Origin: a virus
Virus record (IMG/VR): IMGVR_UViG_3300024520_000057
Location: 1 to 64,000 of that record
DNA length: 64,000 bases
Reading direction: 5' to 3' (one strand)
Under the pieces are notes generated by a model. The model was not told the origin of the DNA, made no database searches, and was given only the letters and a program-made list of their open reading frames with translations. Below are positions 17,893 through 64,000 of the stretch, in pieces. A program made the translations under genes and the position numbers. Numbering within the stretch: position 1 is the first letter of the stretch; the number at the start of each line of letters is the position of its first letter.

Positions 17893-17898
17893 GAAATT

Positions 17899-19253: not shown

Positions 19254-19255
19254 TC

Positions 19256-19495: not shown

Positions 19496-19499
19496 TATT

Positions 19500-25627: not shown

Positions 25628-25737
25628 TAAAATACGATGAAATTGAATCTATTGAGAGTGTAGGGGAACAAGATTTTTATGATTTGGAAGTTCCTGATAC
25701 TCATTGTTATTTTGCTCATGGGATATTAAATCATAAT
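24677..25737 (+). mobile_element. naturally split intein with homing endonuclease, in TerL Walker A
   Basis: IntN from 24677 (ORF stops 25627); IntC 25624-25737 MIKYDEI...FYDLEV...GILNHN followed by Ser; GTGA start/stop overlap with upstream GGAG. Confidence 0.88.
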
Positions 25738-37169: not shown

Positions 37170-37259
37170 TTTGTGAGTGTGGGTGTGGTGGAATTGTTTG
37201 GTGATTTGGGAAGGGGAATTAAATGTGGAATCAAAATTAGCAAACTTTATAAGGAGAAA

Positions 37260-41875: not shown

Positions 41876-41876
41876 A

Positions 41877-42478: not shown

Positions 42479-43000
42479 ATGAATTGGATTAATCATGATT
42501 GTGCAGATATACAAGCAAAGATGACTCTTTACAGGGATGGTGCCCAGCATGGTAGAGCAAGAGAATGGTATGTTGAAAAAAGATGTCAATTTTATAATAA
42601 GATAAATGAGTCATTCAGGGATCAGATTGATTTGATTTTGCCATTTGGTAAAAATGCTGGGGTGAATGATGGTAGTCCAGTTAATTATGGCACCATAAAT
42701 CAGGCTCAATTTGATGTAGGTTATACAATTATTCAGTGGCTTGATGATGTGTGTAAAATTCTTGTCAATAATCAATTACCTGCAAATGAACAATACAACA
42801 ATAATGATATTAATAAAAGACAAAGTGATGAGACAGGAAGTCCAAGATTGATAGTTCACAGAAAAGCTCAAGCTGTAGCATTTTATCAAGCACAAGGAGC
42901 AGGTATGAAACAATTTATTGATGATTTAGTTGATTGGTTGGATTGGAAAATACAAAGTCATTATTCAGGATTTGATTTGAGAACATGGTTTACAAGTTAA
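42479..43000 (+). CDS. hypothetical protein
   Basis: 173-aa ORF with GAGG RBS in the late operon. Confidence 0.65.
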   Translation: MNWINHDCADIQAKMTLYRDGAQHGRAREWYVEKRCQFYNKINESFRDQIDLILPFGKNAGVNDGSPVNYGTINQAQFDVGYTIIQWLDDVCKILVNNQLPANEQYNNNDINKRQSDETGSPRLIVHRKAQAVAFYQAQGAGMKQFIDDLVDWLDWKIQSHYSGFDLRTWFTS

Positions 43001-45759
43001 TAGGATTTATTTTTATGGCACTTGTGTGGTTGGCTCCAGGTGATATAATATCTCACACCCAATCATCTCATAGAAATTGGGAAGATTGGGATGTAAGCAC
43101 ACCTGTTCCATCAGGAGCAATAGGAATATTGGTTCATGTTGATACCAGTGTAGGAACTGCTGGGAAATGGGGGATAAAAAAGAATGGTTCAACAGATGAT
43201 TTTCAAGGTTCTTCAGCTGATCCATTTCATTTTGTTCATGCTATTGGAATTGATGGAAATAGAATAGTTGAGACTATTGGTGATACCAATGATGTTAAGT
43301 TTACAGTAATTGCTTATTTTGATGCTGGTGCTTTCTTCTTTACTAATAGTCCAGCTACATTTACAAATACTGGAACAAGTGGTTATGAAACACATGATGT
43401 AACTGCTTATTCAGATGGTAGTGATGTAGCATTTTATTGTTTTTTTGATTGTGATTCAAGTTCAACAAGAAGAACAGAAGTGAGGAAAAATGGTTCATCA
43501 GATACATTTACAGGGGATGTGTCTAATCATGCAGTGTTAAGTTGTGGAGTAGATGCCAATGAAATATTTGAAATGAAAGTTCAGCAGATAACCAATGATG
43601 CCAGATATATTGGTTATTTGACAGATGATGGCAATATTACAGTTCCTACAGATGCTACATCATTTACAAATTCATCTGATGATACTTGGCAGAATTATAC
43701 ATTGCCAGCAGGAGCAACTAATGGTGCTTTTATTCATGTAGATGCTGCTGCTGATGGAGATAATATTGCATTTGGAATGAGACAGGATGGTGATACCACT
43801 ACTGCATGGATGCAGAATTTAATAGATATAACAGTTGGATTTAGTGAATATGCTATTTATGGAGATGCCAGCAGAGTAATTGAAACAAGAACTGCAGAAA
43901 GTGCAAATATAACATATTACATTAGAGCCTATTTTACAACAGCAGCAGGATTTACAACATATCAAGTAGCAGTAACAGATGGTGTGAAATTTTCTGATTC
44001 TGGTGTTGAGAATGCTATATTACAAGCATTGGTGACAGAACAAATTAATATGGGTGATACATCAGGTAATATTGCTCAATTTCTTGTAGAATTATCAGAT
44101 GGAGCAAAGTTTGGTGATTCTGCACTTGGTGTAAAAATATTACAGGCTATTGGTGTTGATGGAATGAAATTGGGTGATTCAGTTGCTGGTGCAAAATTAT
44201 TTGCTTCCTTAATAACAGATGGAATGAAATTGGGTGATGCCTTGTCAGTTCTTAAAACAGTGGCAGCAATAATCACAGATGGTATGAAGGTGGGAGATAC
44301 ACCTGTAGAAAATGCTATATTACAATCATCTGTAACAGATGGATTTAAGGTAGGTGATACAAATATAGCAACTAAGATAATTCAGTCATTGTTATCTGAT
44401 GGGTTTGAATTTGGTGATTCATCTCTTGCTGGTAAATTATTTGCAGTGTCTATTTCAGATGGATTTAAACTTAGTGATTCCAATGTAGCTACAAAAATTG
44501 TTGAAGCATTAATAGCTGATGGAATAGAAATAAGTGATATTAGTTTAACCACTAAAGCAATTCAAGCACTAATAACTGATGGAGCAAAGTTTGGTGATTC
44601 TTATGTAACAAATGCAATTGTTCAGGTATTATTATCTGATGGAGTGAAATTAGGTGATACTGTAATTGTAGGTAAGTTAATTCAAACCATAATTAGTGAT
44701 GGATTTAAGGTAGGTGATGCAAGTGTAGCTATAAAAATTGCTGAAGCATTGGTGAGTGATGGAATAGATATAGGTGATATTAATTCAACAACTAAAATAA
44801 TTCAGTCACTGCTGGCAGATGGATTTAAGGTAGGTGACACAGATGTAGCTACAAAAATTGTTCAAGCCTTGCTATCAGATGGAATTGATGTAGGTGATTC
44901 TGTAATTGTTGGTAAATTAATCCAATCTGTTATAGCAGATGGATTCAAGTTGGGTGATTCAGCATCATTCAATATGTTATTTGGTGCATTGTTAAGTGAT
45001 GGAATAAAGATGGGAGATGTTTCACTTGCTACAAAAATACTCCAGACTATAATGTCTGATGGAGTGAAGCTGGGTGATATTAATACAATAAATACCATAT
45101 ATCAGGTATTGGCTTCAGATGGATTTAAGTTTGGTGATTCTGTAATTGGTTCTATTGCAGGTGGAGCAATACAAGCAATAATTTCAGATGGTATCAAATT
45201 TAGTGATAATTCAAGTTTATTAGCAACATACCAAACAGAGATTACAGATGGTATTAAACTTTCTGAAACAGTTGAGTCACTTTTAAGGGCATTTGTTAGT
45301 GTTACAGATGGAGTAAAATTTGGTGATGCTTCTAATTGGAAAAGAATTGTAAGTGCTATGGCTTCAGATGGTATAAAATTAAGTGACAGTGCCTCTGGAA
45401 TTTTATTTCTATTAGCTAACTGTGTAGATGGAATAACACTATCAGATGTTGGTTCTATTTCAGCTACATTTCAAGTAAATGTATTGGATGCATTTCAGTT
45501 AGGAGATGCTGTAGCAAATATAACAAGATTTGCTGTTGCCCTGTCAGATGGGTTCAAGCTTGGTGATAGAACAGTTGAAATTTCCCAATTGGCATCAGGT
45601 GAGGTAAAAATAAGTTTTGTTGTGAAAAGTTCAACCTTAACATTCTTAATAAAACAATCAAATATTGATGTAACAGCTAAAAAATCAGTTGCATCTGTGA
45701 CAGCTAAAAAATCAAATATTGATGTTACAGCTAAAAAATCAAATACTGAATTAAATTAA
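42985..45759 (+). CDS. large repeat-containing virion fibre-like protein
   Basis: Three ~100-aa N-terminal repeats (KKNGSTDD/RKNGSSDT/RQDGDTTT), 27 x 20-aa DGxKxGD repeats, C-terminal VTAKKS repeats. Confidence 0.75.
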   Translation: MVYKLIGFIFMALVWLAPGDIISHTQSSHRNWEDWDVSTPVPSGAIGILVHVDTSVGTAGKWGIKKNGSTDDFQGSSADPFHFVHAIGIDGNRIVETIGDTNDVKFTVIAYFDAGAFFFTNSPATFTNTGTSGYETHDVTAYSDGSDVAFYCFFDCDSSSTRRTEVRKNGSSDTFTGDVSNHAVLSCGVDANEIFEMKVQQITNDARYIGYLTDDGNITVPTDATSFTNSSDDTWQNYTLPAGATNGAFIHVDAAADGDNIAFGMRQDGDTTTAWMQNLIDITVGFSEYAIYGDASRVIETRTAESANITYYIRAYFTTAAGFTTYQVAVTDGVKFSDSGVENAILQALVTEQINMGDTSGNIAQFLVELSDGAKFGDSALGVKILQAIGVDGMKLGDSVAGAKLFASLITDGMKLGDALSVLKTVAAIITDGMKVGDTPVENAILQSSVTDGFKVGDTNIATKIIQSLLSDGFEFGDSSLAGKLFAVSISDGFKLSDSNVATKIVEALIADGIEISDISLTTKAIQALITDGAKFGDSYVTNAIVQVLLSDGVKLGDTVIVGKLIQTIISDGFKVGDASVAIKIAEALVSDGIDIGDINSTTKIIQSLLADGFKVGDTDVATKIVQALLSDGIDVGDSVIVGKLIQSVIADGFKLGDSASFNMLFGALLSDGIKMGDVSLATKILQTIMSDGVKLGDINTINTIYQVLASDGFKFGDSVIGSIAGGAIQAIISDGIKFSDNSSLLATYQTEITDGIKLSETVESLLRAFVSVTDGVKFGDASNWKRIVSAMASDGIKLSDSASGILFLLANCVDGITLSDVGSISATFQVNVLDAFQLGDAVANITRFAVALSDGFKLGDRTVEISQLASGEVKISFVVKSSTLTFLIKQSNIDVTAKKSVASVTAKKSNIDVTAKKSNTELN
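43978..45570 (+). repeat. coding tandem repeat, 60-bp unit (~27 copies)
   Basis: GATGG...GGTGAT recurs every 60 nt from 43978 to 45118 (44038 degenerate), shifts by 9 nt, then continues 45187-45547. Confidence 0.9.
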
Positions 45760-49497: not shown

Positions 49498-49808
49498 GAA
49501 TCAAGGAATTGGTTCACATGTTTGCAAAGGAATATAGTTGGTCAATAGAATATATAATGGATTTAACAAGAAGGCAAATGAATAGTTTATTGAAAGCAAA
49601 TGAGAACTTGAGAAAAATGGCTGATGGAAAGCAAGCAAGCCAGTCGTCAAATCTCCCTGATGGCAAGAAAAGTTCTTTGACAAATAAACTGCAGTTATTA
49701 ACAATGCCTGGATCAAGGATGACTGAAAGAGCAAAAAAAGCTTTCCTGAAATCAAAGGGAATTTCACAATTTTTAGATAAGGAAAAAAAGGAAAAGACTG
49801 ATGCCTGA
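49443..49808 (+). CDS. tail assembly chaperone -1 frameshift extension (GT-like)
   Basis: -1 frame is open from the slippery heptamer (FIRHGRVEQVGEPDENIGIKELVHMFAKEYSW...) to the stop at 49808. Confidence 0.8.
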   Translation, partial: FFIRHGRVEQVGEPDENIGIKELVHMFAKEYSWSIEYIMDLTRRQMNSLLKANENLRKMADGKQASQSSNLPDGKKSSLTNKLQLLTMPGSRMTERAKKAFLKSKGISQFLDKEKKEKTDA

Positions 49809-52800
49809 AGGCAGGAATTTTGTAGAAGAATTATGGGTTGGAATCAGAGCTGACTTGTCTCATTTACAAGCTGGTTTGACCACTGCAAGTGCCCAAACAA
49901 AAACATTTGTTGGCAGACTGGGTGCAATGAGTGGACAATTAAGAAGAGTAGGGAAAGCTATTGGTTTGATTTCAACAGCCAGTGCAATAATGGGTGGAAT
50001 TGCTACAAAGGTGTTTGCTGATTTTGAACAAGGAATGGCAAATACAGCATCAGTTCTTGGCTCAACACAGGAAGAATTGGCTACTGTTTCTGATTTTGCA
50101 AGGGAAATGGGACGAACAACAGTTTTTACAGCAACACAGGCAGCAAATGCAATGTATTTTCTGGCGTCAGCAGGTTTTGATGCTCAAAAAATTATGGGTT
50201 CATTAAAAGGAACTTTGGCACTGGCAGCAGCAACCCAACATGATTTGGCTGAGACCACAAGGATTGTGGTTTCGGCTATGAATCAGTTCAATTTGACAGC
50301 TGAGGAATCTTCAAGAGTTGCCAATGCAATGTCAGCTATTATTTCCAGCACACAGGCTACAATGGACAGGCTTGGGGATTCATTGAAGTTCGTTGGACCA
50401 ATTGCAAGTGGTTTGAATATTTCATTGGAACAAACACTTGCTGTGTTAGGTAAACTGTTTAATGCTGGATTGCAAGCCAGCCAAGCAGGAACATCCCTCC
50501 GACAAGCTTTGATTAGGTTACAAAAACCAACAGCTCAATCAATAAAAGCAATTGGTGATTTGGGACTTACATGGGCAGATATAAATCCACAGACAAAGGA
50601 TTTGGTTCAAATAATTAGAACATTAGAGAAGGCTGAAGCAGGTGCAATTGATAAGGGTGATGAGTTGGCAAAAATATTTGGACAGAGAGCCATTGCTACA
50701 TTTCAAATTTTAATCAGGGAAGGTGCAGATGCAATTGAGGATTTGGAAGATAAAATCACTGGAACCAATAAAGCTTTTGAAATGGCTGAGATACAAATCA
50801 ATACACTCAGGGGCTCATTTAAGCTACTGTTGTCTGCATTACAGGAAGCAGCCATCCAAATTGGTGAGGTCATAGCTCCTATTGTAAGGGGGATGGCAGA
50901 TACATTCAGGGATGCAGTTCAAATTTTTAATACCATGCCAGCTATATTCAAGAAAGTTGCTGTGATGGCAGTGGTTCTTGCTACTGGATTAGGATTGGTG
51001 GTTGCACCAGTTATGCTGTTGCTTTCATTGATTCCAAGTATTGTAGCTGGATGGGGAACTTTGACTGCATTATTTGGAGCAACTCTTGGTCCAATTGCAT
51101 TGGTAACTGCTGGAATAATTGGTTTGGTAACAGCCATTGGTTTGATGATTTCAGCTGATAGAAGAGCAGCACAACAAAGGAAGGATAATATCAAGTCAAT
51201 TGATGAAATGATTACAAAGAGGGAACATGAAATTCTTAACATAAATGCAATGTCAAGCAGGTATGTAGAACTTGCAGACAGAGCAAAATTGACTAATAAA
51301 GAACAGAGGGAGATGGAAAAGATACTTGGTCAATTGAAGCTTAAATATCCTGATTTGATTAAGGACACTAAATTTTATGCTGGTGCACTTGATGATGTTA
51401 GGAGAATTGCAGATTCAACATCTAAAGAATTGCAGAAGCTTGCTGAAATGAAGTTGTCATTGGAAAAGGTGAAAATTACCTTGGATATGGCAGACTTGAA
51501 AGTTCAAGTTCAAAAACTTAAAGATGAGCTGAAGCCGTTGGAAAAGGATTCATTTAAATTGGGGGCAGAGGTTATATTGTCTTCAGTAACTGGTGGAGCT
51601 GTTAGGGTTGACAATACAGAACTTTTGGAAACCCTGTCTATTTTCGATGATATCAAGAGGGTGTCTGTAGAAACAATGACTGGAACCACTAAAATGAATA
51701 CAGCATTGTTGACAAATTCACTCAAAGAGAATATCAGTGAATTAGATACGATAAAAAGTATTACAGAAGATATAAGCAAATTGACAGATGGACAAATTAT
51801 TACATCCACTGAAATAGAAAAGATAAGGGCAGTTGCAACTGATGAGGAAAGATCTCTAACAAAGATTGAGAGTGGAAGAATCAAGACTTTGGAGGAACAA
51901 AAGAATACATACAGTGAGATTTCAAGTTCATTGGCTGGGTTGGTTAAGGATTCCACTGAATTGAATTCCAAGCAAATAGAACTTTTGGAAATAGGAAATA
52001 AGCTGAAGGCAATTGGGGACAGTGAGACAGTGCTCAAAAGGAAGGTTACAACTGAAGAAGATTTGGGAGAAGCAACAGGAGGACTTGCAAAAGAAGAAAT
52101 TGAGTTGGAACGACAGAAACAAGATTTTATGTTTCAACTTGAAAAGCAGGTATTGGAAGCAAGGTTGTCTGAAAAGAAGCTTTATGTTGATGAGAGCAGA
52201 AAATTTGCAGAGGAAGCAATAGATGCTGAGTTTGAATACAAGCAAAGAGTTTTGGAAATGGAGAAGGAAGTTGTATTAAGACAGGCTGAGGATTTGAAAG
52301 AAGACAAAGCAAAAGTTGAAAAAGCATTTAAGGCAGAATCTATTTCAATTGAGAAAGCAAGATTGGATGCACATGAAAATTTGAATAGACAATATTTTGA
52401 AAAACTGGAAAATTTTGAACTTGAGAAAATGAGAAGAGAGGCATTTAGGGATGAAGAAGAACTTGCTGAATATAAAGCTTATTTACAAGAAAAATTTGCT
52501 GCTGAGAAAGAGGGAACTGATAGATATCTTAAGCTTCTGAGATTGATAACAGAAGTGGAAGAATCTGAATGGGATGCAAGGATGGCAAAAGCACGATACT
52601 GGGGAGGAATGATGACAAGTCTTGCTACATCTGTTGGACAAGCTTTTGGAAATCAAATAGCAACTGGAATGACAAGTGCATGGAAGGGAAGTTTGATTGC
52701 TGTTATTAATATGCTTGCCAAACATTACAAAAATATTTTGGCAATGGGAATGATAAATGATTTGGCTCATTTGAATTTTGGGGCAGCAGCTATGAAAGCT

Positions 52801-54768
52801 GCTGCTATTGGTTTGATTTCAGCAGCAGCAAGTGCAGCAAAAGCAAATATAGCAAGTGCAGAAATTGGAGCTGAAGTTCAAGCAGGTGGTGTGGTCAGGG
52901 TTCATCCTGGAGAAACAATTGTCCCAGCAAAGGTGGTTAGGAAAACTGATGATGAGTATTCTGAAATATTTAAAGAATTTAAGGGAATAGATAGGGCAAA
53001 ATCAGTGATGGAAGATATTGTTAGTATGTCTTCTGTTGATAAGATGTTTGATGCCAAAAAAATGAGTGTAATTGTTGATAAAATAAAAGGTATGTCATCC
53101 AATTTAAAAACAGTTGGGATTGAAGATATCAAAACCACTGAAAAATATTCAGATATCAAACACAAAGAAAATTTCCGTGATGTTGAAAAGATGACTGGAA
53201 TCAGAGATGTTAAGACTGATTTTCAATCAAAAATTGAGGAAATTAATAAGACATATAAGGCTGATGAGAGGGATACAGAAATTAAGAAACTGGAAGCTGA
53301 TTATGTTACCAAAATTCATGAAATAAAAAGCAAAGATAAGATGTCAAAGTCTGATGATATTTTAAAGGATGTTCACAGAACAGTGGATGTTAAGCTTACA
53401 GATGCTGATAAATTGAGTGAAATTCTGAAAAGGTCTGAGAAGTTTACAGAAATATTGAAGAATGCTGAGAGCTTTTCAGATATAAAAAGCATTCTTAACA
53501 TTACAGACATTGGCACACTGGATACTGAGAAGATAGATATTAGCAGTGCTGTTGGAGTTGAAAAATCCTTTGAAAATATTAAGGATAAGATTTCCAGCAT
53601 AGATGTGTTTGAATCAACAGGATTGGAAAAATTTGTTACAGTTGCAGATTCCATAAGGGATGTGGAAAATATAGACATAATTTTCAAGGAAACTGGTTTG
53701 ACAAAAATAATGGATTCTGTAAGGCAGGTTGTTAGCCTGAAGGATAGCATTAAGGACGAATTACAAACAGCCTCTGTTGGTTTCTCATTGGGAGAATCCA
53801 CTTCTGTGTCTAATATACAAGAGTTGACAAGGGATATTTCTAATGTTATAGAAAAATTCAAAATAACTGATGAAACAAAGTCTGTTGTTGAGGGTGCAAA
53901 AAAGTCAGCTGATTCCATTTTAAACCTGACAAATGTCTCTGATAAAATGATGTGGACAAAATCAGTGCATGATATTTCTAAAGCTGCTTTTGAAAATATG
54001 AAAGGAACAGAAAATACTGATTTAAAATCTATTAAAAATACATTTGAAAAAATATCTATGGATTCATTTAGAACAGGAATTGTAGAATCATCTTTTAAGT
54101 TCGGAACAATTAAGACAATGGTGGACAGTATTGATAGAATTGTTGGTGGTGCACCAAAGTCAGTTGAAACTGAACTTATTAAGAAAAAATCATCGGAAAT
54201 TAGGAATATAATTGACCAGTCAAGCTTTTCCAATATATCAGAAAATGTCATTAGTTCGATTATTGGGAAATCCAGTGAGATAGTGAAAAGTATTTCCACA
54301 TCTCAAATCAACCAAGAAGATAAAAATGTTGTCAAGAAATTATCAGAAAATATAAACACTGTTGCAGTTGGGGAAAGTTCATTATCAAGAACAAATGTAG
54401 TTTCTGAATTTATTACAAAATCAATGTCCAATGTAAGCAATATTATGTCGTCTTTTAATCTTATTCCACAAGCAAATATTGGAGCAAGAATTGCCAAAGA
54501 GGGAATAGTAAATGTTCATCCTGGTGAGATAATTGTTCCAGCAAAAGTTGTTAGGGAAACTGAAAGTAGATACAAGGAAATTGTTGGTGGTGAAAAGAGT
54601 TCTGATAAGACTGTAACAAAAGAAATTGTGAGAGAATTGATTGAAGGTGGAATTGTAGATAAACAACCTATCAACATTTATAATCCAATGGTCAATGATC
54701 CAGAATTTTGGGAGAATATAGCTGAGGAATATATTATAAAGGCATTTGAAAGAGTGAAGAATAGATGA
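49801..54768 (+). CDS. tape measure protein (TP901-like)
   Basis: FADFEQGMAN, TVFTATQAANAM, GLQASQAGTSLR, hydrophobic mid segment, long helices, duplicated HPGE..VP motif. Confidence 0.92.
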   Translation: MPEGRNFVEELWVGIRADLSHLQAGLTTASAQTKTFVGRLGAMSGQLRRVGKAIGLISTASAIMGGIATKVFADFEQGMANTASVLGSTQEELATVSDFAREMGRTTVFTATQAANAMYFLASAGFDAQKIMGSLKGTLALAAATQHDLAETTRIVVSAMNQFNLTAEESSRVANAMSAIISSTQATMDRLGDSLKFVGPIASGLNISLEQTLAVLGKLFNAGLQASQAGTSLRQALIRLQKPTAQSIKAIGDLGLTWADINPQTKDLVQIIRTLEKAEAGAIDKGDELAKIFGQRAIATFQILIREGADAIEDLEDKITGTNKAFEMAEIQINTLRGSFKLLLSALQEAAIQIGEVIAPIVRGMADTFRDAVQIFNTMPAIFKKVAVMAVVLATGLGLVVAPVMLLLSLIPSIVAGWGTLTALFGATLGPIALVTAGIIGLVTAIGLMISADRRAAQQRKDNIKSIDEMITKREHEILNINAMSSRYVELADRAKLTNKEQREMEKILGQLKLKYPDLIKDTKFYAGALDDVRRIADSTSKELQKLAEMKLSLEKVKITLDMADLKVQVQKLKDELKPLEKDSFKLGAEVILSSVTGGAVRVDNTELLETLSIFDDIKRVSVETMTGTTKMNTALLTNSLKENISELDTIKSITEDISKLTDGQIITSTEIEKIRAVATDEERSLTKIESGRIKTLEEQKNTYSEISSSLAGLVKDSTELNSKQIELLEIGNKLKAIGDSETVLKRKVTTEEDLGEATGGLAKEEIELERQKQDFMFQLEKQVLEARLSEKKLYVDESRKFAEEAIDAEFEYKQRVLEMEKEVVLRQAEDLKEDKAKVEKAFKAESISIEKARLDAHENLNRQYFEKLENFELEKMRREAFRDEEELAEYKAYLQEKFAAEKEGTDRYLKLLRLITEVEESEWDARMAKARYWGGMMTSLATSVGQAFGNQIATGMTSAWKGSLIAVINMLAKHYKNILAMGMINDLAHLNFGAAAMKAAAIGLISAAASAAKANIASAEIGAEVQAGGVVRVHPGETIVPAKVVRKTDDEYSEIFKEFKGIDRAKSVMEDIVSMSSVDKMFDAKKMSVIVDKIKGMSSNLKTVGIEDIKTTEKYSDIKHKENFRDVEKMTGIRDVKTDFQSKIEEINKTYKADERDTEIKKLEADYVTKIHEIKSKDKMSKSDDILKDVHRTVDVKLTDADKLSEILKRSEKFTEILKNAESFSDIKSILNITDIGTLDTEKIDISSAVGVEKSFENIKDKISSIDVFESTGLEKFVTVADSIRDVENIDIIFKETGLTKIMDSVRQVVSLKDSIKDELQTASVGFSLGESTSVSNIQELTRDISNVIEKFKITDETKSVVEGAKKSADSILNLTNVSDKMMWTKSVHDISKAAFENMKGTENTDLKSIKNTFEKISMDSFRTGIVESSFKFGTIKTMVDSIDRIVGGAPKSVETELIKKKSSEIRNIIDQSSFSNISENVISSIIGKSSEIVKSISTSQINQEDKNVVKKLSENINTVAVGESSLSRTNVVSEFITKSMSNVSNIMSSFNLIPQANIGARIAKEGIVNVHPGEIIVPAKVVRETESRYKEIVGGEKSSDKTVTKEIVRELIEGGIVDKQPINIYNPMVNDPEFWENIAEEYIIKAFERVKNR

Positions 54769-57700
54769 TTACAGTAAATGCAACCACACAAGCTTTGCAA
54801 ACCAGTATGGGGCAAATTCCTGATGTATTGGAAATAGTCACTATTTTTGAACAATGGAGTGGAATTGTTAATAGTGTTACCAGTGTAACAAATTTCAAAG
54901 TCAAGGGAGATGCTACAAGTCTTTTGTCGGTTGGTGATTCAATCACCTCATACCTTACAGATTTTCCAACAGTGGATACAATAGCAACAATTAGCTACAG
55001 TGGTGGGAATGTGGAAACCACCATAACATTGGGCGGTTCAGGACTTACAAATATTGTTACAGGTGTGTATATACAAAAACAAACCAACATAACTTCCAAG
55101 CTAATTAGGAATGGAATTGGAAATGTAATACAGAAACTGTCTGGATTTGGATTGAATAAATTTGATTCAGGCAGTCTGGATATTACAGTTGATAATTCTG
55201 ATGGCTTTTTCTTTACATCAGCAGGGGCTGGGGTATTTGGAATTGGAAATGTAATTTATGCATCATACAGAATTGGATTCAGAGGGGCTGATGATAGAAT
55301 ACTGTATTTTGCTGGTGTAGTTGATACAACAGATCTTGGCATTGATATTGCAAATAAAGTGGTAAAATTTAGAATATATGGACACACAAAGGAATTGGAA
55401 AGATATCCAGCATTTAGATGTAGCAAGGCTAATAATTCAAGATTCAACAGGATATCAGGATTTACAATTATTGGATACACCGAATCAGCTGATAGTGAAG
55501 AAGGTATCAAGGGTGTTTATCTGAAACCATTTACAAGAACAAAATTATCTCAAGCTGTGGAGATTCAAAGTCTTTCATGGGACACACAGGCAGGTATTAA
55601 GAAATTGGAATTCAGATATCCAGATTTATTCAAGTGGAATGGTGGGGCATGGACAAGGGTGAATTTAAGTGATTTGGATGCAGATGGTAATTATGAAATG
55701 ACAGATATAAGTGGTGAGAAAGCTGTTATTAATTTTGGTAGCACAGATGACATGAATGAGATGCCAGATAGGGATGATGAAATGTTAGTTCATGTTAAGC
55801 CACAGGATGAATTGGGTGCACAGGAGATGGTTTCAAGTGTTGGAATTCCTGTTATGAGATTTGATAATGGGAATTGGCAGCCAATCAAAATAAATTTTCC
55901 ATTATGTCTGAAATTAGCAAGTGCTGTTTATACAGATGTATCTGCAGAATTTGGTTCTCCTAACTTGGAGGATAATGTTCAAATCTTGAATGCAAATAGT
56001 GATGAAATTCTTATTATTGCACCAGAAATATTCTATGGATTGATAGTAAGACTTACATCAACATTTTCAGCTGGTGATTTGTCGTTTTATTATTCAACTG
56101 GAGCAAACACATGGAGCTCAGAATTTACACCTGATACAGAAGGAACCAGTGATTTCACTGATGAAGAAGGCAGAATTATATGGGGAGAACTTGATGGATG
56201 GGAAGTGAATGATATAATCATAGATGCCAACACTCATTATAGAGGATTTATGATTAAAATCAAAAGGGATAGTGCTACAGGTAATTGTTATATGGGGGAA
56301 ATGAAAAGATTGGTGAGGCTGATTGGTGAATCAGGTGATATTTTAACAATGGAAGTGAATCAGGATGAAATTCCAGTTGTTGATGCTTTTGATGAAATAA
56401 TTATAGCCTATGATGATGTTGAAGAATCATGGGGATGGGCAATGTGGTATCAACAAGCATCCCTGAATACAATTCTTGAGAAAATGTTAGATTCGTCCTA
56501 TTATACAACAGCAAAAAGAAGTGTAACAGTGATGAAAAAGTCAACTGCAAGCAGTGTTTTTAATATATGGGGACACTCACCAGAAGTTAATCACAAGTTA
56601 CACTCAACAGCTGTTTATTATCACAGTTCCAGTGGATATTTGTATATGGGACTTGGTGGAAGTTATTGGTGTGAACTTTGGAGAACTAAATTGGATGGTG
56701 AATGGGAGTTCTTATCAAGAATTGAAAATGAATGGATGTCAAAAGGATCTGAATTTGAAATAGCAGACATTTATGTAACTGTTGATGTATGGTTTGTAGT
56801 TAGGGAGAGACATGGAGTTTATCATGATGGTGTCAAATTCAATTATTTCCTTTATTATTTTGATTTGACTGGGATGACATTGAATTTAAGTTCCACACCT
56901 TCCACATTTAGAGAATCATATTCAGGACAATTATCTATCAGGAATGGAGAAAGATATGAGGGTGATTCAGGAAATTGGTGGAGTAGCATTGGACAATTAG
57001 GCACATCTACACCACAATTTGGGAATCATGGTGAGAATGTTTGTATTCCATTTAGGCAATTATTAAATCCTGGAGTTGCAAACAATGCAAATCAGTTACA
57101 AAAAGCTGATAATTTAGATAGTGATTGTGATTTAACACACTATCTATTTAGATTTTATTTTGCTGTTTGGTTCACAGCAGATAGAACAGGATTGAGATAT
57201 TGGACACCAATGGGATATTATGCCATTTCCGATGTAGCTTTTGATGTTACAGAGGGAGCAGTTGGTGATTTGGAATTTGGATTTGATTATGGACAAAGAG
57301 GAAGCTATTTATTCAACCAAACAGAGCTGAATGGCTATACATTTCAAGAATTTACAGATGCTGGAAGTTTGACAGCTCACAGGTTTTATGGATTGGGTTC
57401 TACAAATCAAGCCAAATATGAAAAGATGATGTTGTATGGAAGTCAGAATATTCCTATTTGCAGTGCACTTCATGATAATGAAAATGATATATTTTTTGGG
57501 CATACCAGATGGGTAGATGTTGGTGATGATATTAGGAGCTATTCATATATCACCAAGTTTAAGGCAACTGGTGTAATTGATGCTTCTGCTGTAATGCACG
57601 ATAGCACAACAGGGGGATTTACAGAACAGACTGATAATTGGAATAATGATCCTACAAGTATGCCGAATATGAATGAGGTTGGTGACATAATATATATTGG

Positions 57701-59015
57701 GTTGGAATTCAAAAGATTCAGATCTGTTTATGTAGAGATGAATGGTGTGCATGGAACTTATGCATATGAATATTGGAATGGTTCCAGTTGGGTTACTCTT
57801 GAAGACATTCCAGCAAATAACATTCCTGATGATATAGTGTGTTGGAGCATACCAAATGATTGGGCACAGACTACTGTAAATGGAAGTGATCCACAATATT
57901 ACATAAGGATAAGGCAAACAGGTGCAGCAAATCAAGGATGGTCAGATGCATATATTCTTGAATACTGTTTATGGGATAGCGAGGAAGATACTGGTAATGA
58001 GGCAATGATGCCTGTCAACATGGCTTTTAATCCATATGATTCTAATTTATATGGCTGCATGTTCAATAGATTAACAACAGGAACATATCCATTCCAATGG
58101 AGCTTTTTTGCTTGTGATATGGGAGCCACTCCAGGATTTTCAGAAACAGTATATCATTCAAGAACAGGAACAAATTTTACATTTAATGCATCATTTCTGA
58201 TGAAAGATTTTCAATATAATGCAGATGATAATACAGTTTATTTTGTAATGGAAAATAGAAGATATGATGACAGAAGTTCATTTGTTGCTAAAGCTTCTGG
58301 CTCAGCATCATCTCCAACAATGACAAAAGTGGGAACACCCAGAGAAAATGAATGGGGACAACATTTTTTACACATAACAAGCACTGGAGTAATGTATGGG
58401 GCAACAAAGGAAAATAATGTGTTCTGGGAGTATAATGATGAGTTCTATCCAAGAGTTGATATAGCAAAATTTGATGAGAATTCTAATTACAAAAATATTC
58501 TTGAGAGTGTTGTGTTAATAATGAATTATTATATGTTTATCCATTCAGACAGAACAATAGATTTATTTGTAAGGGATACAGTGAATGGAACAATAGCATT
58601 GGATTGGTCAACCAATTTAATCAATACACCACCTGAATTTGAGTATTGGGAGCATAAGTATGATGGTATTGTGGTTGACTGGAAGGATCCAATTAGTGGA
58701 TTAAGTGGAAGCAAGAAAAGAGGATTTACAAATTGGCTGAAAAAAGTTCTCAATATTTCAGATACACTGATACAGTCAAGCCATTTAGCAGATCTAATTG
58801 CTGCAGACAATTATACCTATTTCAATCAATATAGAATCAAAGCCTCAAGAATCAGAACATTGTTTTTAACACAACTGGAATTAATTGATAAGTTTACAAT
58901 ATTTATTCCAGCTAATATTATGGATATAGATAACACAAAAGAATTTTTAATTGACCAAATAAGAATTAACAGAAGTCAAAAACAATTGGAATTAAGTGGA
59001 GTGGAAATCATATAA
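54765..59015 (+). CDS. large tail tip/baseplate hub-like protein
   Basis: 1416 aa, beta-rich, ATGA-coupled to the tape measure gene; repeated internal modules (GWEVNDI / DWAQTTVNG...YYIRIR). Confidence 0.7.
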   Translation: MITVNATTQALQTSMGQIPDVLEIVTIFEQWSGIVNSVTSVTNFKVKGDATSLLSVGDSITSYLTDFPTVDTIATISYSGGNVETTITLGGSGLTNIVTGVYIQKQTNITSKLIRNGIGNVIQKLSGFGLNKFDSGSLDITVDNSDGFFFTSAGAGVFGIGNVIYASYRIGFRGADDRILYFAGVVDTTDLGIDIANKVVKFRIYGHTKELERYPAFRCSKANNSRFNRISGFTIIGYTESADSEEGIKGVYLKPFTRTKLSQAVEIQSLSWDTQAGIKKLEFRYPDLFKWNGGAWTRVNLSDLDADGNYEMTDISGEKAVINFGSTDDMNEMPDRDDEMLVHVKPQDELGAQEMVSSVGIPVMRFDNGNWQPIKINFPLCLKLASAVYTDVSAEFGSPNLEDNVQILNANSDEILIIAPEIFYGLIVRLTSTFSAGDLSFYYSTGANTWSSEFTPDTEGTSDFTDEEGRIIWGELDGWEVNDIIIDANTHYRGFMIKIKRDSATGNCYMGEMKRLVRLIGESGDILTMEVNQDEIPVVDAFDEIIIAYDDVEESWGWAMWYQQASLNTILEKMLDSSYYTTAKRSVTVMKKSTASSVFNIWGHSPEVNHKLHSTAVYYHSSSGYLYMGLGGSYWCELWRTKLDGEWEFLSRIENEWMSKGSEFEIADIYVTVDVWFVVRERHGVYHDGVKFNYFLYYFDLTGMTLNLSSTPSTFRESYSGQLSIRNGERYEGDSGNWWSSIGQLGTSTPQFGNHGENVCIPFRQLLNPGVANNANQLQKADNLDSDCDLTHYLFRFYFAVWFTADRTGLRYWTPMGYYAISDVAFDVTEGAVGDLEFGFDYGQRGSYLFNQTELNGYTFQEFTDAGSLTAHRFYGLGSTNQAKYEKMMLYGSQNIPICSALHDNENDIFFGHTRWVDVGDDIRSYSYITKFKATGVIDASAVMHDSTTGGFTEQTDNWNNDPTSMPNMNEVGDIIYIGLEFKRFRSVYVEMNGVHGTYAYEYWNGSSWVTLEDIPANNIPDDIVCWSIPNDWAQTTVNGSDPQYYIRIRQTGAANQGWSDAYILEYCLWDSEEDTGNEAMMPVNMAFNPYDSNLYGCMFNRLTTGTYPFQWSFFACDMGATPGFSETVYHSRTGTNFTFNASFLMKDFQYNADDNTVYFVMENRRYDDRSSFVAKASGSASSPTMTKVGTPRENEWGQHFLHITSTGVMYGATKENNVFWEYNDEFYPRVDIAKFDENSNYKNILESVVLIMNYYMFIHSDRTIDLFVRDTVNGTIALDWSTNLINTPPEFEYWEHKYDGIVVDWKDPISGLSGSKKRGFTNWLKKVLNISDTLIQSSHLADLIAADNYTYFNQYRIKASRIRTLFLTQLELIDKFTIFIPANIMDIDNTKEFLIDQIRINRSQKQLELSGVEII

Positions 59016-59029
59016 CAAAGGAGCAAGCC

Positions 59030-59479
59030 ATGAAGTCATTAGTTTTATTTTTATTAATTGTGTTGGTGTCATTTTCATTTTCACAAGAGCCATATATGAG
59101 AACAAAGTTTGTGAATAGAGTAGATATAACAGGGAATGCAACTGATTCAATATATGTTTCACCAATGAATAGTGTTGAGAGAAGGAATATGGAATCAACT
59201 TTCACTGGTAGTTTGGGATTGATAATTAATTGTAGAGATTTAGGAGGAACAGCTGGGAGTGTTGCAATAAGTTATACACTGTCCACTTGGGATTCAGCAA
59301 GATCAGCAATAGATGTAGTTGCTCTTACTGCTGCACAGGCATGGACAGATAATGAAGTATTTGTCTTTGATATAAGCCAAAATTTTCCTGTCTGGGGTGT
59401 TTGGGTTTATTTTACAAGGTCTGGGGCAACTGGAATGGGAAGATTTAATGTGTGGCAAACATATGTAAAATATAGGTAA
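59030..59479 (+). CDS. small beta-rich protein with Sec signal peptide inside the tail module
   Basis: MKSLVLFLLIVLVSFSFS|QEPY; AAGGAG RBS. Confidence 0.7.
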   Translation: MKSLVLFLLIVLVSFSFSQEPYMRTKFVNRVDITGNATDSIYVSPMNSVERRNMESTFTGSLGLIINCRDLGGTAGSVAISYTLSTWDSARSAIDVVALTAAQAWTDNEVFVFDISQNFPVWGVWVYFTRSGATGMGRFNVWQTYVKYR

Positions 59480-59485
59480 TTTATC

Positions 59486-60388
59486 ATGTCTTCACATCCA
59501 TGGGAAAATGATGTTCTTGGTGGTGTTGGTGTTCCAAGAATATTGACTTGTAGTCAAAATAAATGCACCAATCCATACTTTGACCAAGACGAAACTGGTT
59601 GGACAGAAAGTGGTGGTTTAGCTGGTAGAGTTGCCAATGATGATGGTTGGAGTGGATATATGTATGAGGTGGATGAAGGTGAACAAGGTGATTATGTTCA
59701 ATTCAGTTGGAATACAGGAGCAGCAATAGCAGGAAGAACATTTGTTGCTGGTGTAAGAGTCAAAGGTAATTGGGCAAGCACAAATGAAGTAGCAATGAGT
59801 CTTAGAGGAACTGGAGAATTTGGGACAAAAGATATGGTGTTACAAGAGGACACTTTAAACAGGAATATTCTCATTGCAACATCAGGAGCAAGTCAGGGAA
59901 ATTCATTGGTATTAAGATTGTCTGGATTTAGTGATGCTGATACATCCCTTAAATATTGGTTTGATAATGTATTTATGTGTGAAGTATTTGGTGATTATTC
60001 TTTTACACAACCTAATGAGCTCAGTAGGTTAAGATTTCAAAAAATAGTCAGAGGAAACAATGAGATAATAAGTGGTCATATACAGGAATTTAACAAGTAT
60101 TGGAGACCACATTATTATGCCAGTTGGAAATATCTTGATGATGTAATAGAGGCATTTAGACAGGAAATTTCTGAAGAGGAGATATTATTTTGCATGCCTC
60201 ACACAGATGTAAATTGGGGATTTTTTGGAATATGGGATGGTGATTTTTTAAGACAATATTCCTTTAATAAATTTTTTGGACACAAGGGAATTGTAGCTAT
60301 AAAAGGAATAGAAATGTTAAAGGAAAAGCCACAATATTATACTGGTGAAGGAACGGTTTATATTGATAGTGAAGATATGATTTATTAA
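59486..60388 (+). CDS. tail protein with CBM-like jelly-roll (possible distal tail protein)
   Basis: NPYFDQDETGW...YWFDNVFM carbohydrate-binding-module-like pattern inserted in a tail-type protein. Confidence 0.55.
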   Translation: MSSHPWENDVLGGVGVPRILTCSQNKCTNPYFDQDETGWTESGGLAGRVANDDGWSGYMYEVDEGEQGDYVQFSWNTGAAIAGRTFVAGVRVKGNWASTNEVAMSLRGTGEFGTKDMVLQEDTLNRNILIATSGASQGNSLVLRLSGFSDADTSLKYWFDNVFMCEVFGDYSFTQPNELSRLRFQKIVRGNNEIISGHIQEFNKYWRPHYYASWKYLDDVIEAFRQEISEEEILFCMPHTDVNWGFFGIWDGDFLRQYSFNKFFGHKGIVAIKGIEMLKEKPQYYTGEGTVYIDSEDMIY

Positions 60389-60402
60389 GTTAGGAGAAAC
60401 CT

Positions 60403-63400
60403 ATGAAACAAATATTTTTAATACTAATGTTTTTGTTTGGTTTAGCATTAGCACAAATTGAATCAGTATCATATCAAAGAGTTCCAAGAACAGGTGGTGG
60501 TAAGGTAATTCCTGGATTGGATGTAGATTTGTATTATGGTGGAACAAGCAACAAAGCATATGATTTAACAGAAGTGAGTAGTGCTCCAGGAAAATATAAC
60601 AATTCAAGTGTTGAACCAGGAATTTATGATGTGTGGATTAATGGAAGTTTGAATGAAAGCAGTATTGTAGTTGGGACAGTAGCTGATTCAACTTTAACAC
60701 TTGTAAAAATGACAAAGGCTACAATTGATTATATTGGTTCAGGTGGAAGTGTAACCAATAATCCAGATGATATCACATTAGAAGCAAAGCCTGGAGATAA
60801 AATAGGAATTATAACTGCTTATTTGGATACAATAACATCTAATATGAATTGGGTGTCATTACAACTAAAAGGTGGTATCCCTGATGATGCTACAAGTGCC
60901 AACACTGCTTTGACCAATGCAATTTCAGATGCTAATAGTGATTACAATGGGGGAAGTGTATTTATTCAGGGTGGGAAATATTATGTTCCTGGAGCAATAA
61001 CACAGACAACTGATGTAAAGCTATTTGGTGATCCTTCAGGTGCAAGTCATTTCAGAGGGAATAGCACCTATTTTATGAGATTAAATACAGATACAGTTAT
61101 AATTCAAAATCAGAGGTTTAGTGATTATGCTAATGTTTTTGAAATAAAAGGAAATATCAAGTATTTGGAAATAAGTAATTGCACATTTGATAATAATACA
61201 TCACCATTAGATAATCCAGATGATGCCAATGATTATAAAATTGAAACACTGGTATTAAAGGATAATATTGTAAAAAATTGTAACACTGGATTTATGGTTG
61301 ATACTGATAGTTTACAGAATGCATGGGCACTTAATAATCTTATATACAATCTCAGTAGCACCAATGCCACAATTGGAATAATGTTTGGCAGGGATGATTC
61401 CAGTAAAAATTACAATAGAAATTATATCATTGCTGGGAATGTAATTGATTCAGTTTTACAAACAGATGCCACAGCTCATGAAACACATGGGATTTATGTT
61501 TTTGGTGATAATGTTGTAATAGATGGAAATGTAGTCAATAATATAGAGGCATCTAATAGTGCTGTTACAACTGCTGTTGAAGGGATTTATGCCAAGCTTC
61601 AATATGGGAGTATATCAAATAATATGTCAGAAGATGGTGGATTTTATGAAGGTGTAATTGCAGTAAAGGGCAGACCAGTTGAGGACATTGATTATAGAAG
61701 TTTGGGATGGAATATCATTGTAGCAAATAATAATTTAATAAATACAGATACATACCATCAAGGTGCTGGTCACCCTACAGAAAGTGTGGGAATAAATATA
61801 CAAACAAGAGATGTATTGGTTGTAAATAATTATTTAGATGGTTTTACAGATGATGCTATTTATGCACCACAATCATCAAATCCATGGGACAATGTTACAA
61901 TCAGAGGAAATCACATTGTTAATACTAAAGGAGCAGAGGCAATAAGGTTTGCTAACAGTGGAAGAAATTTAACAATTGAAAATAATTTAATATTCAGAAT
62001 AATATCTTCCAGTGCATCTGCTAATAGAATATATGGTATGGATATAGGAAGGCTTGATGAGGAACTTGATGATGTGATAATAAGAAATAATACTATATTG
62101 GTTGATTCAACAGAAGCCACATCTGATAATTTTCCAAGAGGAATAAGACTGTTAGCAAGAGATTATGAAATGAATAATGTTATTATTGATGGTAATATAT
62201 TTGATTTTAAATCAGCTAATGTTACCACATCAACAGCAATTGAGTTTTATGGCTATGCTACTGACCATGTTTTTGATAGTGTTATTGTTAAGAATAATGA
62301 TTTCAGATATGTGGATGCTTTATTTGCTGAAAATGGAGAACAGCTTCAATACATTACAAGTTATGATAATTTAAGCTATGATGTCCAAGCAATGTTTGAT
62401 TTAATGGAAGGTAAAGGAATATTCACAACTGTTAAGGATACATTCATTGCAGCAGTGAATTCATTGGACATATCATATCCAGGATATTATAATTTTAATG
62501 GAGCTGTAATAAATGTTGATACACTAACTTTTCTTCCAAAAGGAAATTCCAATAGCAATGTCATTGAAATAAGGTCTGATGATGTAACAATTGCTAATTT
62601 AACAATATTAGGAAATTATGATGTTACAAGAGGCATATACCTTACATCAGGATATGGCAACATAACAATTAGGGATGTGAAATTGATTGGAACAGGACAA
62701 GGGATAAGGATGGATGACAGCCACAATGTATTGATTGATAATGCAACAGTGTGGGATTCAACTGTATCCACTGATGGTGTGTATGGGAGTAGTTCAGCTG
62801 GAGATAGTGTTACTGTAACTAATTGCAATCTTTATGCTGAAAGAGGAATATATTTCAAATCAAATTTTTCAGATGGCTCCAAGGGTGCATATGATTTGAT
62901 AATTTCAAATAACAGAGTTGTTTATCCAACAGGACTTGGGACTCATTCAGAAGGCATAACAGCTTCATATGCAGTCAGAGCAAAAATAATAAATAATTTT
63001 ATTGATGGATTTGATTTAGGAATCAGCATGACAGGTGATACACTTTACAATGGTGGACATCTGGTTTCAGGGAATACAGTTAATGGCAGAACAAATTCCA
63101 TTGAATTTGTTAGAGTTAGAAATGGAAAGGTTGCTAATAATTTCTTTTATGCAGATAGTGGTGTTGCTAATTTTAGTAATTGTAAAAATTTAACAATAAT
63201 TGGCAATACATTCAGAGGTGATTATTACAATGATGCCCACATGTCAAGATTTAGTGCTGTTGGATTGATTTATATGTTAGGATATGCTGATGGTGATGGA
63301 TATGTTGATCCAGACAGTTCAGTTGATAATACACTTATAATGGGCAATAAACTTTCAAATGGTGGAGATGGAATAAGGTGGTTGTCATCATTGGTTCCAA

Positions 63401-63846
63401 CTTCACATATACAAATTAACAACAATCAATTTGATTCACTAAGACAAGCTATTTATATTGGTTCATCTGGTTCAATGCAACAAGGATACATCCAAGTAAA
63501 TAATAATGTGGCTAAAAACATCCATGCCTCATTTTTTGTTGCAGCAGATTCAATAACATCACTTCAAGTGAATTTCAATATGGTTCAATTTGATTCCAGC
63601 CAGAAACAGGAAGCACCACCATTGAATTGGGGAATGAGATTGGTAGGAGTTGATGATTTACAAATGATAGGGAATTTTTGGGAATGTATAAATGGTGGTT
63701 TAAATAGACCAGTAACAACTCAAACCAATGAACACAGAAATATAATACACTTGGGCAATATTTATAAAGATTTTATCAATAACACTCCAACTTGGGTAAA
63801 TACAACTACAGTGTATGATACATTGAATATCATGTATGATTTTTAA
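60403..63846 (+). CDS. tail-spike/depolymerase-like right-handed beta-helix protein with Sec signal peptide
   Basis: MKQIFLILMFLFGLALA|QIES; GGIPDDATSANTALTNAI...VFIQGGKYYV pectate-lyase-3-like cap; many IxxNxI repeats; AGGAG RBS. Confidence 0.82.
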   Translation: MKQIFLILMFLFGLALAQIESVSYQRVPRTGGGKVIPGLDVDLYYGGTSNKAYDLTEVSSAPGKYNNSSVEPGIYDVWINGSLNESSIVVGTVADSTLTLVKMTKATIDYIGSGGSVTNNPDDITLEAKPGDKIGIITAYLDTITSNMNWVSLQLKGGIPDDATSANTALTNAISDANSDYNGGSVFIQGGKYYVPGAITQTTDVKLFGDPSGASHFRGNSTYFMRLNTDTVIIQNQRFSDYANVFEIKGNIKYLEISNCTFDNNTSPLDNPDDANDYKIETLVLKDNIVKNCNTGFMVDTDSLQNAWALNNLIYNLSSTNATIGIMFGRDDSSKNYNRNYIIAGNVIDSVLQTDATAHETHGIYVFGDNVVIDGNVVNNIEASNSAVTTAVEGIYAKLQYGSISNNMSEDGGFYEGVIAVKGRPVEDIDYRSLGWNIIVANNNLINTDTYHQGAGHPTESVGINIQTRDVLVVNNYLDGFTDDAIYAPQSSNPWDNVTIRGNHIVNTKGAEAIRFANSGRNLTIENNLIFRIISSSASANRIYGMDIGRLDEELDDVIIRNNTILVDSTEATSDNFPRGIRLLARDYEMNNVIIDGNIFDFKSANVTTSTAIEFYGYATDHVFDSVIVKNNDFRYVDALFAENGEQLQYITSYDNLSYDVQAMFDLMEGKGIFTTVKDTFIAAVNSLDISYPGYYNFNGAVINVDTLTFLPKGNSNSNVIEIRSDDVTIANLTILGNYDVTRGIYLTSGYGNITIRDVKLIGTGQGIRMDDSHNVLIDNATVWDSTVSTDGVYGSSSAGDSVTVTNCNLYAERGIYFKSNFSDGSKGAYDLIISNNRVVYPTGLGTHSEGITASYAVRAKIINNFIDGFDLGISMTGDTLYNGGHLVSGNTVNGRTNSIEFVRVRNGKVANNFFYADSGVANFSNCKNLTIIGNTFRGDYYNDAHMSRFSAVGLIYMLGYADGDGYVDPDSSVDNTLIMGNKLSNGGDGIRWLSSLVPTSHIQINNNQFDSLRQAIYIGSSGSMQQGYIQVNNNVAKNIHASFFVAADSITSLQVNFNMVQFDSSQKQEAPPLNWGMRLVGVDDLQMIGNFWECINGGLNRPVTTQTNEHRNIIHLGNIYKDFINNTPTWVNTTTVYDTLNIMYDF

Positions 63847-63920
63847 AAAGATGTTGTTCATTATGTATATTAATTATGTAGTATGAATAAAATAGTGTAA
63901 AAACCAGTTCTGCCACCCGA

Positions 63921-63951
63921 AATCCCAGCTGAATTATATTTGGCTGGGATT
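63921..63951. terminator. hairpin after the spike gene (possible terminator)
   Basis: AATCCCAGC...GCTGGGATT inverted repeat. Confidence 0.5.
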
Positions 63952-64000
63952 GTTAACAACAGGATTTCAAGTAATGGTAGTGTTTGGGAAAATTGGGAAT

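Follow-up and report, generated by a model that had tools for sequence, protein, structure and literature searches.

The stretch examined here, called the window throughout, comprises the first 64 kb (positions 1 to 64,000) of the 73,214-nt IMG/VR virus record IMGVR_UViG_3300024520_000057, whose CheckV completeness is 83%. The element is a marine siphovirus with every gene on the + strand and a GC content of ~0.35; its tailed-phage genes encode a terminase, a portal, a minor head protein, a major capsid protein, a head-tail adaptor and a tape measure, and the public runs holding the stretch are labelled seawater metagenome in 8 out of 8 cases. After the tape measure come four open reading frames (ORFs), each named below by its first nucleotide, at 54765-59015 (1416 aa), 59030-59479 (149 aa), 59486-60388 (300 aa) and 60403-63846 (1147 aa). 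Since the next gene, at 63950, encodes a helicase of the SNF2 family, 60403 closes the structural module. The subject of this text is the hydrophobic leader carried by two of these proteins, 59030 and the tailspike-like 60403: the presence of export signals on tail-spike proteins suggests that parts of a virus may leave the cytoplasm before the cell bursts. The features on which the argument is built are the following:

59019-59023, + strand: AGGAG Shine-Dalgarno-like motif, 6 nt before the ATG of 59030
59030-59083, + strand: leader of 59030, residues 1-18, ending SFS/Q (from sequence features; here and below the slash marks the predicted cleavage site)
60392-60396, + strand: AGGAG Shine-Dalgarno-like motif, 6 nt before the ATG of 60403
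60403-60453, + strand: leader of 60403, residues 1-17, ending ALA/Q (from sequence features; AlphaFold2 (AF2) helix at residues 2-15)
60466-60672, + strand: N-terminal beta-sandwich of 60403, residues 22-90 (AF2, 25-row alignment)
60682-60834, + strand: conserved neck module, residues 94-144, ADSxxTLxKMTxAxxxYIGSGGSVTNNPDDITLE, the only part that 60403 has in common with the relatives P0002-P0004
60877-61452, + strand: pectate-lyase-like region, residues 159-350 (PF12708, E 8.8e-5, 22.8 bits, under the cut-off of 27)
62545-63216, + strand: right-handed beta-helix region, residues 715-938 (NosD at 717-866, 24.7 bits against a cut-off of 23.6; phrog_2234)

The initial annotation of this DNA had placed leaders at AGGAG starts in 59030 and 60403 and none in 59486 between them, and both the spacing and the N-terminal features bear this out. 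Each ATG lies 14 nt past the stop of the preceding gene, the motif stands 6 nt upstream, and, leaving aside the hydrophobic run, 60403 has no further in-frame Met until about residue 101, which argues that the leaders sit at the true starts. The N-terminus of 59030 reads MKSLVLFLLIVLVSFSFS/QEP and that of 60403 MKQIFLILMFLFGLALA/QIE, with a single Lys (Lys2) making up the charge of the n-region in both. The uncharged run spans 16 residues in 59030 and 15 in 60403, shorter than a membrane span, and the most hydrophobic stretch of 11 among the first 35 residues has a mean hydropathy of 3.46 and 3.10, respectively; the residues at -3 and -1 are small (S-F-S/Q and A-L-A/Q) and the one at +1 is not Pro. 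By comparison, 59486 starts with MSSHPWEND and has no hydrophobic run. When a rule calling a leader followed by Gln is applied to the 102 + strand ORFs of the 73-kb record, seven pass, and the five clean ones among them (18217, 18621, 22923, 59030 and 60403) all have Gln after the predicted site. The leader regions of both genes are identical (0 differences) in contigs from four other runs (X5, record 7, covering 58900-61285; X4, records 1 and 2; X6, record 17; X7, record 24). A 214-nt contig (run X5, record 9) matches 39 nt only, 60396-60434, with 5 differences and with unlike flanks on both sides; it may hold the leader of a relative or be a chance match.

Two other export routes were considered and discarded. 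A lipoprotein reading, with processing by signal peptidase II, is out as no Cys lies near either cleavage site; both proteins lack a lipobox because the +1 residue is not Cys. Cargo of the type IX secretion system (T9SS) is out as well, since Pfam and NCBIfam find no C-terminal sorting domain in 60403. Such a domain, which we take to be PF18962 or TIGR04183, appeared neither in nine leader proteins, 60403 among them (NCBIfam), nor in 25 members of its family (Pfam). The leader of 60403 is very probably a real signal for Sec and signal peptidase I (SPase-I), and that of 59030 is probably so too, with somewhat less assurance; from their sequences, both proteins are predicted to pass through the Sec translocon of the host and to be cut by its signal peptidase I. 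In both, the Gln at +1 matches the Q-rule of Bacteroidota, according to which Gln directly follows the SPase-I site (PMC5837995).

The conservation of the 60403 leader was surveyed among 1.84 billion representatives with the mature N-terminal residues 18-160 (window 60454-60882) as the query. As the leader had been left out of it, the presence of a leader in any match is independent of the query. The survey set comprises 96 relatives (95 matches besides the query, plus P0002 from a word-based search). An N-terminal hydrophobic region is present in 88 of them, and just past it 82 show Gln preceded by Ala (51), Ser (16), Gly (12), Thr (2) or Cys (1); six relatives have a leader and fail the Gln rule, one of them, P0055, with VFA/Q just beyond the window of the rule. 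In an alignment of 25 members (A2), Gln18 at +1 is invariant (25/25) and -1 is Ala in 15, Ser in 8, Thr in 1 and Gly in 1, and pairwise identity amounts to 22% in the h-region of the leader, 38% in the sandwich and 42% in the neck. The h-region is nonetheless hydrophobic in every row (mean hydropathy +2.7, never below 1.6). The character of the h-region and the cleavage site are thus kept and the sequence is not, which is the signature of a signal peptide. Leader and Gln are also kept in all nine viral contigs that hold the module, including two syntenic relatives (L003 and L011) at ~32-36% identity. Whether homologues keep the leader had been put forward at the outset as a check, and for 60403 the answer is clearly yes: 82-88 of the 96 relatives have it, as do all nine viral contigs. 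Export of 60403 to the periplasm is, in consequence of all these features, a well-supported prediction.

The family is restricted to viral contigs among the sets searched. A search with the neck motif gave seven IMG/VR contigs and one with the tip protein (54765) gave one more, while the module was confirmed in none of 24 pattern matches in GTDB representative contigs and found in 0 of 401 sampled Bacteroidota genomes, and residues 18-160 had 0 matches among 50,697 GenBank phage records. The word-based homologue search gave for 60403 only three weak relatives, with residues 94-144 as the only common part, and a related-locus search with 60403 alone found no locus.

Are these N-termini cleaved export signals at all? 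They might instead be membrane anchors, structural plugs or mere resemblances that lead to no export, and the leaderless minority of the family, together with the established fact that tailed-phage virions assemble in the cytoplasm, would fit such an explanation. However, uncharged runs of 15-16 residues are too short for a stable transmembrane anchor, and a sequence as poorly conserved as the leader (22%) is unlike a docking element. Moreover, -1 is Ala, Ser or Gly in 79 of 82 sites and Gln occupies +1 in 82/96 relatives and 25/25 aligned rows, and nothing but the action of signal peptidase I and the Q-rule on the protein would account for that pattern. We consider uncleaved or non-exported N-termini very unlikely.

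Downstream of the cleavage site, the order in 60403 is Gln18, the sandwich (22-90), the neck (94-144) and a variable pectate-lyase-like/beta-helix body. The AF2 model of residues 1-160 has a 10-residue block-mean pLDDT (predicted local distance difference test) of 95-98 over residues 21-90 and is less confident in the neck. The sandwich resembles Ig, CnaB and carboxypeptidase-regulatory folds in weak Foldseek rows; against the PDB, Foldseek gave no match to the N-terminal model at E <= 1e-3, and the best match in BFVD comes from an uncultured phage and is labelled 'pectate lyase superfamily protein' (E 1.8e-4). The neck motif is found in about half of the 96 relatives. As for the body, residues 715-938 match phrog_2234, 'tail spike protein' (E 7.7e-7); a PDB sequence search with 60403 had 0 matches, and its ESM Atlas look-alikes include clusters with the P22 Head_binding and Beta_helix domains (score 0.91, a lead only). 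Pfam finds different bodies among the 25 members, with PF12708 in five, Beta_helix in four, and NosD, BNR_4, CBM_4_9 and BNR_2 in one each, the BNR bodies being sialidase-like. Varied bodies on a constant N-terminus are the usual tailspike pattern, and 60403 appears to be a modular protein of the tailspike type, putatively polysaccharide-degrading. The tailspike likeness first noticed by eye is thereby upheld by NosD over its cut-off, phrog_2234, the N-terminal sandwich and the neck, with PF12708 staying below its cut-off.

The loci of the relatives fall into two arrangements. L003 and L011 show the order tape measure, tip, leaderless 59486 homologue (305 and 299 aa, respectively) and spike with leader and Gln (984 and 1042 aa), the N-terminus of the latter being 36% identical to 60403 over residues 1-148. 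A helicase lies downstream of the spike, directly so in L003 and after one intervening ORF in L011, and in L003 the spike is followed by a second leader+Gln protein, the two being 45% identical at their C-termini. L004 and L006-L008 belong to a different kind of phage, with a protein of 2100-3200 aa before the spike block (LPD38 was matched in that of L004, the one scanned); the stretches of L005 and L009 do not reach this gene. Runs of one to five leader+Gln ORFs occur in L004-L009, among them a ConA-like lectin and a weak pectate-lyase-like match below the Pfam cut-off, and all fibre-candidate ORFs found after the giant protein carry leaders, except for an ORF of 88-91 aa. Over eight loci, leader and Gln occur in 18 of the 118 ORFs of at least 80 aa, 14 of the 18 lying in the distal block at the end of the structural module. 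Searches of GenBank phages with the class-ii domain and the tip gave no match, and the portal matches found there are <=26.5% identical and indicate no host.

From export and cleavage onwards, we infer the following course. The protein 60403 would be made late, together with the tail genes, exported to the periplasm and cut after Ala17, whereupon Gln18 would probably be cyclised to pyroglutamate, by analogy with the Q-rule. The mature protein would build up in the periplasm until lysis, when it would meet the particles built in the cytoplasm and, most likely, dock on the baseplate via its conserved N-terminal domain; the surplus would act as a free enzyme on the glycan of the host surface. Docking at lysis with surplus free enzyme is the outcome that we consider somewhat better than even. 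A virion role is favoured because the N-terminal domain is conserved under exchangeable bodies, because the gene ends the tail module and because L004-L009 show no other fibre candidates.

The same facts can be read in a different manner: 60403 and its relatives may be exported without ever being part of the virion, as secreted enzymes derived from tailspikes. Freed in the periplasm and then at lysis, such an enzyme would destroy the receptor glycan, as a neuraminidase-like release or exclusion factor, and so block superinfection and keep the progeny from sticking to debris; receptor binding proper would fall to the 1416-aa tip or to the leaderless protein of 300 aa. By every sequence criterion the leaders are real, export parts 60403 from cytoplasmic assembly, and both leaderless binding candidates, 54765 and 59486, are conserved in the two relatives. 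Furthermore, phage depolymerases act free as well as on virions (PMC6116005), and the Q-rule genes of Porphyromonas gingivalis phages were read as modifiers of the host envelope by the authors describing them (PMC10367356). Nevertheless, a free enzyme has no obvious need of a conserved sandwich and neck with exchangeable bodies, the fibre-candidate ORFs of L004-L009 all have leaders except for the 88-91-aa one, and the lack of a T9SS domain would leave the enzyme no reach to the capsule before lysis. We regard a purely enzymatic role as unlikely.

Docking at lysis, the reading preferred here, has to be held against several observations. To our knowledge, there is no precedent among tailed phages for a protein joining the particles only after lysis, and such joining would be inefficient; SPase-I export by itself, with no T9SS domain found, reaches the periplasm and no further. 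The leader calls come from a simple rule of our own and not from a trained predictor such as SignalP, and the 59030 leader has no comparative support, as that protein has no relatives. In the family of 60403, eight of the 96 relatives have no hydrophobic N-terminus; one of them (P0064) is 5'-truncated, but in at least three (P0013, P0034 and P0090) the mature domain starts straight from the Met, and export is thus evidently not indispensable for the domain to work (the genomic context of P0034 and P0090 had no match in viral or metagenome contigs). The related 'YRIRMPxSxYSAQLRG' N-domain is a separate, leaderless ORF of 88-91 aa just before the leader-bearing spike in L004 (9529-9804) and L009 (182-448), yet it is fused behind the spike leader in L005 (1121-4147) and L007 (9956-12049). 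As a control, the tail fibres and spikes of two cultured Bacteroides phages were inspected, and the N-termini of crAss001 gp22-gp26 and of the B40-8 tail fibre proved ordinary and leaderless. Finally, the Shine-Dalgarno usage described below is unlike that of a typical Bacteroidia host. All these points weigh against the preferred reading. In its broadest form, the whole host-recognition apparatus (spikes, lectins and small jelly rolls) of a widespread group of uncultured phages of Q-rule, Bacteroidota-like hosts would be Sec-exported, trimmed by signal peptidase I, pyroglutamate-capped, folded in the periplasm and docked on spikeless particles only at lysis; this two-compartment scheme we consider doubtful.

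How does this compare with what is known? Textbooks place the assembly of tailed phages entirely in the cytoplasm. Late docking is physically plausible, since spikeless P22 particles accept their spikes in vitro. Like the tailspikes of the P22 type and phage depolymerases, 60403 has a beta-helix body, a conserved N-terminal module with exchangeable bodies and the last place in the structural module. Unlike 60403, known tailspikes have no signal peptide and are folded and assembled in the cytoplasm; besides, 60403 has no sequence match to solved structures and its N-terminal module (18-160) matches no GenBank phage. Virion proteins with Sec signal peptides, including the receptor-binding one, do exist in filamentous phages (pIII and pVIII), which, in contrast to the present tailed phage, are assembled at the membrane and extruded without lysis. 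In the full-text literature searched, from which subscription journals are mostly absent, no report of a signal peptide on the spike or fibre of a tailed phage was found.

Sec-exported and signal-arrest-release (SAR) endolysins, e.g., Lys44 of the Oenococcus phage fOg44, accumulate outside the cytoplasm before lysis (PMC6116005); as proposed for 60403, they are late phage proteins using the host Sec, but they are lysis enzymes and neither tail-module nor beta-helix proteins, and the candidate endolysin of the present phage (NlpC/P60, 17467-17892) lies away from the spike. In Porphyromonas gingivalis prophages, five genes without an assigned function encode proteins in which predicted SPase-I cleavage exposes Gln, which the authors see as an adaptation to the secretion system of the host (PMC10367356). 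Those genes differ from 60403 in belonging to temperate phages and in being read as envelope modifiers, with no link to a tail spike stated in the available text. The WceF protein of Pantoea stewartii is a bacterial glycan-modifying enzyme with a tailspike-like fold, and the paper on it also mentions signal peptides (PMC7949094); WceF is encoded by the bacterium, whereas the present module is in no bacterial genome searched. In one paper, the absence of signal peptides has even served as a mark of phage origin for target proteins of diversity-generating retroelements (PMC6199706).

Annotation pipelines that take the lack of a signal peptide as a sign of a phage structural protein would wrongly classify proteins such as 60403, and constructs for producing depolymerases of such phages recombinantly should start at the Gln at +1. 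If docking at lysis holds true, a tailed virion finished outside the cytoplasm would be new. In any event, a tailspike-like family, so far known from viral contigs alone, has retained an export signal tuned to the host although its members have diverged deeply, and the textbook picture would be cut across either way, with receptor-binding gear added after lysis or with tail operons routinely secreting tailspike-derived enzymes.

Regarding the host, the Q-rule is not exclusive to Bacteroidota, as Ignavibacterium also scores high for it (PMC5837995). The DegT-like gene at 40718 has its best matches in Elusimicrobia (47-49%) and Mariniphaga (48%), and metagenome-assembled genomes (MAGs) of these lineages were picked for that reason to apply the same leader rule, a crude one, to ~180-200 kb of each. 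Gln is the commonest +1 residue in the Mariniphaga MAG (15 of 46), in contrast to two Elusimicrobia MAGs without Gln enrichment (4 of 46 and 6 of 57), by which Elusimicrobia was ruled out as the likely host. Shine-Dalgarno-like motifs precede 57 of the 102 phage genes against 13% at random places, while in the Mariniphaga (Bacteroidia) MAG (5/103) and the phage B40-8 (5/68) they are at background. Leaders with Gln at +1 and Shine-Dalgarno motifs together point to a host from a Q-rule lineage that uses Shine-Dalgarno sites, and Gln at +1 offers a usable clue to host lineage for uncultured phages. Such motifs are above background in most of the related contigs L003-L011 as well.

The genes around the spike, with the tape measure that opens the distal tail block, are these:

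49801-54768, + strand: tape measure protein, 1655 aa (PF10145, E 5.3e-45; phrog_1533, E 7.9e-96)
54765-59015, + strand: leaderless 1416-aa protein after the tape measure, distal tail or tip by position only
59084-59479, + strand: mature 59030, 131 aa, eight-stranded jelly-roll beta-sandwich (AF2, single sequence)
59486-60388, + strand: leaderless 300-aa protein conserved beside the spike gene (by homologues)

The start of 54765 overlaps the tape-measure stop by 4 nt, and the protein is 32% identical over its full length to proteins of 1449 aa (L003) and 1441 aa (L011) in the same place. Its description as a tail-tip gene stands as regards its position after the tape measure and finds no backing in Pfam, PHROG or PDB sequences, where it had no match (0 for a PDB search with the tip alignment). 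The homologues of 59486 (P0100, 44% identical; L003 9036-9953, 33% identical, alignment A4; L011 14329-15228) start with MSHPWE or MAHAWD and are all leaderless. For its family, Pfam gave only a sub-threshold DUF6928 and PHROGs nothing, and the word-based search found one relative. A complex prediction of 59486 (A4) with residues 18-160 of the spike (A2) returned no answer (score 0.00) and is evidence neither way.

The case of 59030 is different from that of the spike. The model of the mature protein (pLDDT 68.9; predicted TM-score 0.67) aligns best, by VIA-align, with a GOLD domain (Z 10.1) and a nanovirus capsid (Z 10.0), so the predicted fold is probably a generic jelly roll. No sequence relative was found for 59030 by word-based homologue search, and it has no match in Pfam, PHROG or NCBIfam; neither is it present in the syntenic relatives L003 and L011. 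Since it has no homologue and is missing from both relatives, it is an accessory gene and not a conserved tail part, which weakens the initial interpretation as regards 59030. In the ESM Atlas it resembles hypothetical viral proteins of small size (score 0.92), which is a lead only. From its sequence and model, 59030 may be a recently acquired, exported, lectin-like jelly-roll protein, accessory and separate from the spike, and most simply one that binds sugars or acts on the envelope.

A more specific proposal is that of a moron-like gene lodged in the tail module, whose exported, non-virion product would serve in receptor masking or sugar binding. Cor, Llp and Lom are small exported proteins encoded in or beside the tail-fibre region, Cor and Llp being lipoproteins, and offer a possible model, although 59030 shares no homology with them and lacks the lipobox of Cor and Llp. 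The absence of the gene from both syntenic relatives, the lack of sequence relatives, the look-alikes just mentioned and a small jelly roll, a fold common among sugar-binding modules, would all suit a moron. Besides the missing lipobox, what speaks against it is the 14-nt gap before the gene, where nothing suggests a promoter or terminator belonging to 59030 alone, and the fact that L004 and L007 also have small leader+Gln ORFs (161 and 167 aa, respectively) ahead of their spikes, although these show no BLAST similarity to 59030. A moron-like origin is possible, somewhat short of even. Scans over 58700-64000 gave 45 sigma-70 promoter sites against 32 expected, which is uninformative in AT-rich DNA, and one terminator-like site, inside 60403. 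A hairpin, TCCCAGC...GCTGGGA, at 63923-63949, past the 60403 stop and ahead of the helicase gene, may mark where the late operon ends.

A cohesin/dockerin pair had been invoked in support of virion finishing in two compartments, but that support is weak, both Pfam matches being sub-threshold and lying 36 kb upstream among glycosyltransferase (GT) genes:

22415-22918: cohesin-like leaderless ORF (PF00963 Cohesin, 21 bits against a cut-off of 24.1)
22923-23465: dockerin-like leader+Gln ORF (PF00404 Dockerin_1, residues 115-160, 16.1 bits against 22.9)

The two ORFs adjoin, between a GT2 and a GT1-like gene. A further block of sugar-modifying genes (35058-42422), between the capsid gene and the head-tail genes, with a GT1/GT2 fusion and the DegT-like gene as its scanned members, suggests that glycans on the virion or on the surface of the host are modified. 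At 42985-45759, just before the head-tail connector genes, lies a 924-aa protein with six phrog_12240 repeats and an N-terminal hydrophobic segment without a clean cleavage site (..VWLA/PG); the counterpart position in L011 holds a 755-aa ORF with ..GYA/QL, at the contig edge. The large terminase looks interrupted at 24401-27210: its match is short (residues 4-105 of ORF 25624), ORF 25624 begins with what we take to be an intein-like C-terminal motif, and ORF 24401 carries an endonuclease/resolvase domain at 297-400. Lastly, a lysis-like cluster at 14554-20389 contains many small membrane or leader-bearing ORFs around the NlpC/P60 peptidase, two of which, 18217 and 18621, have leader and Gln.

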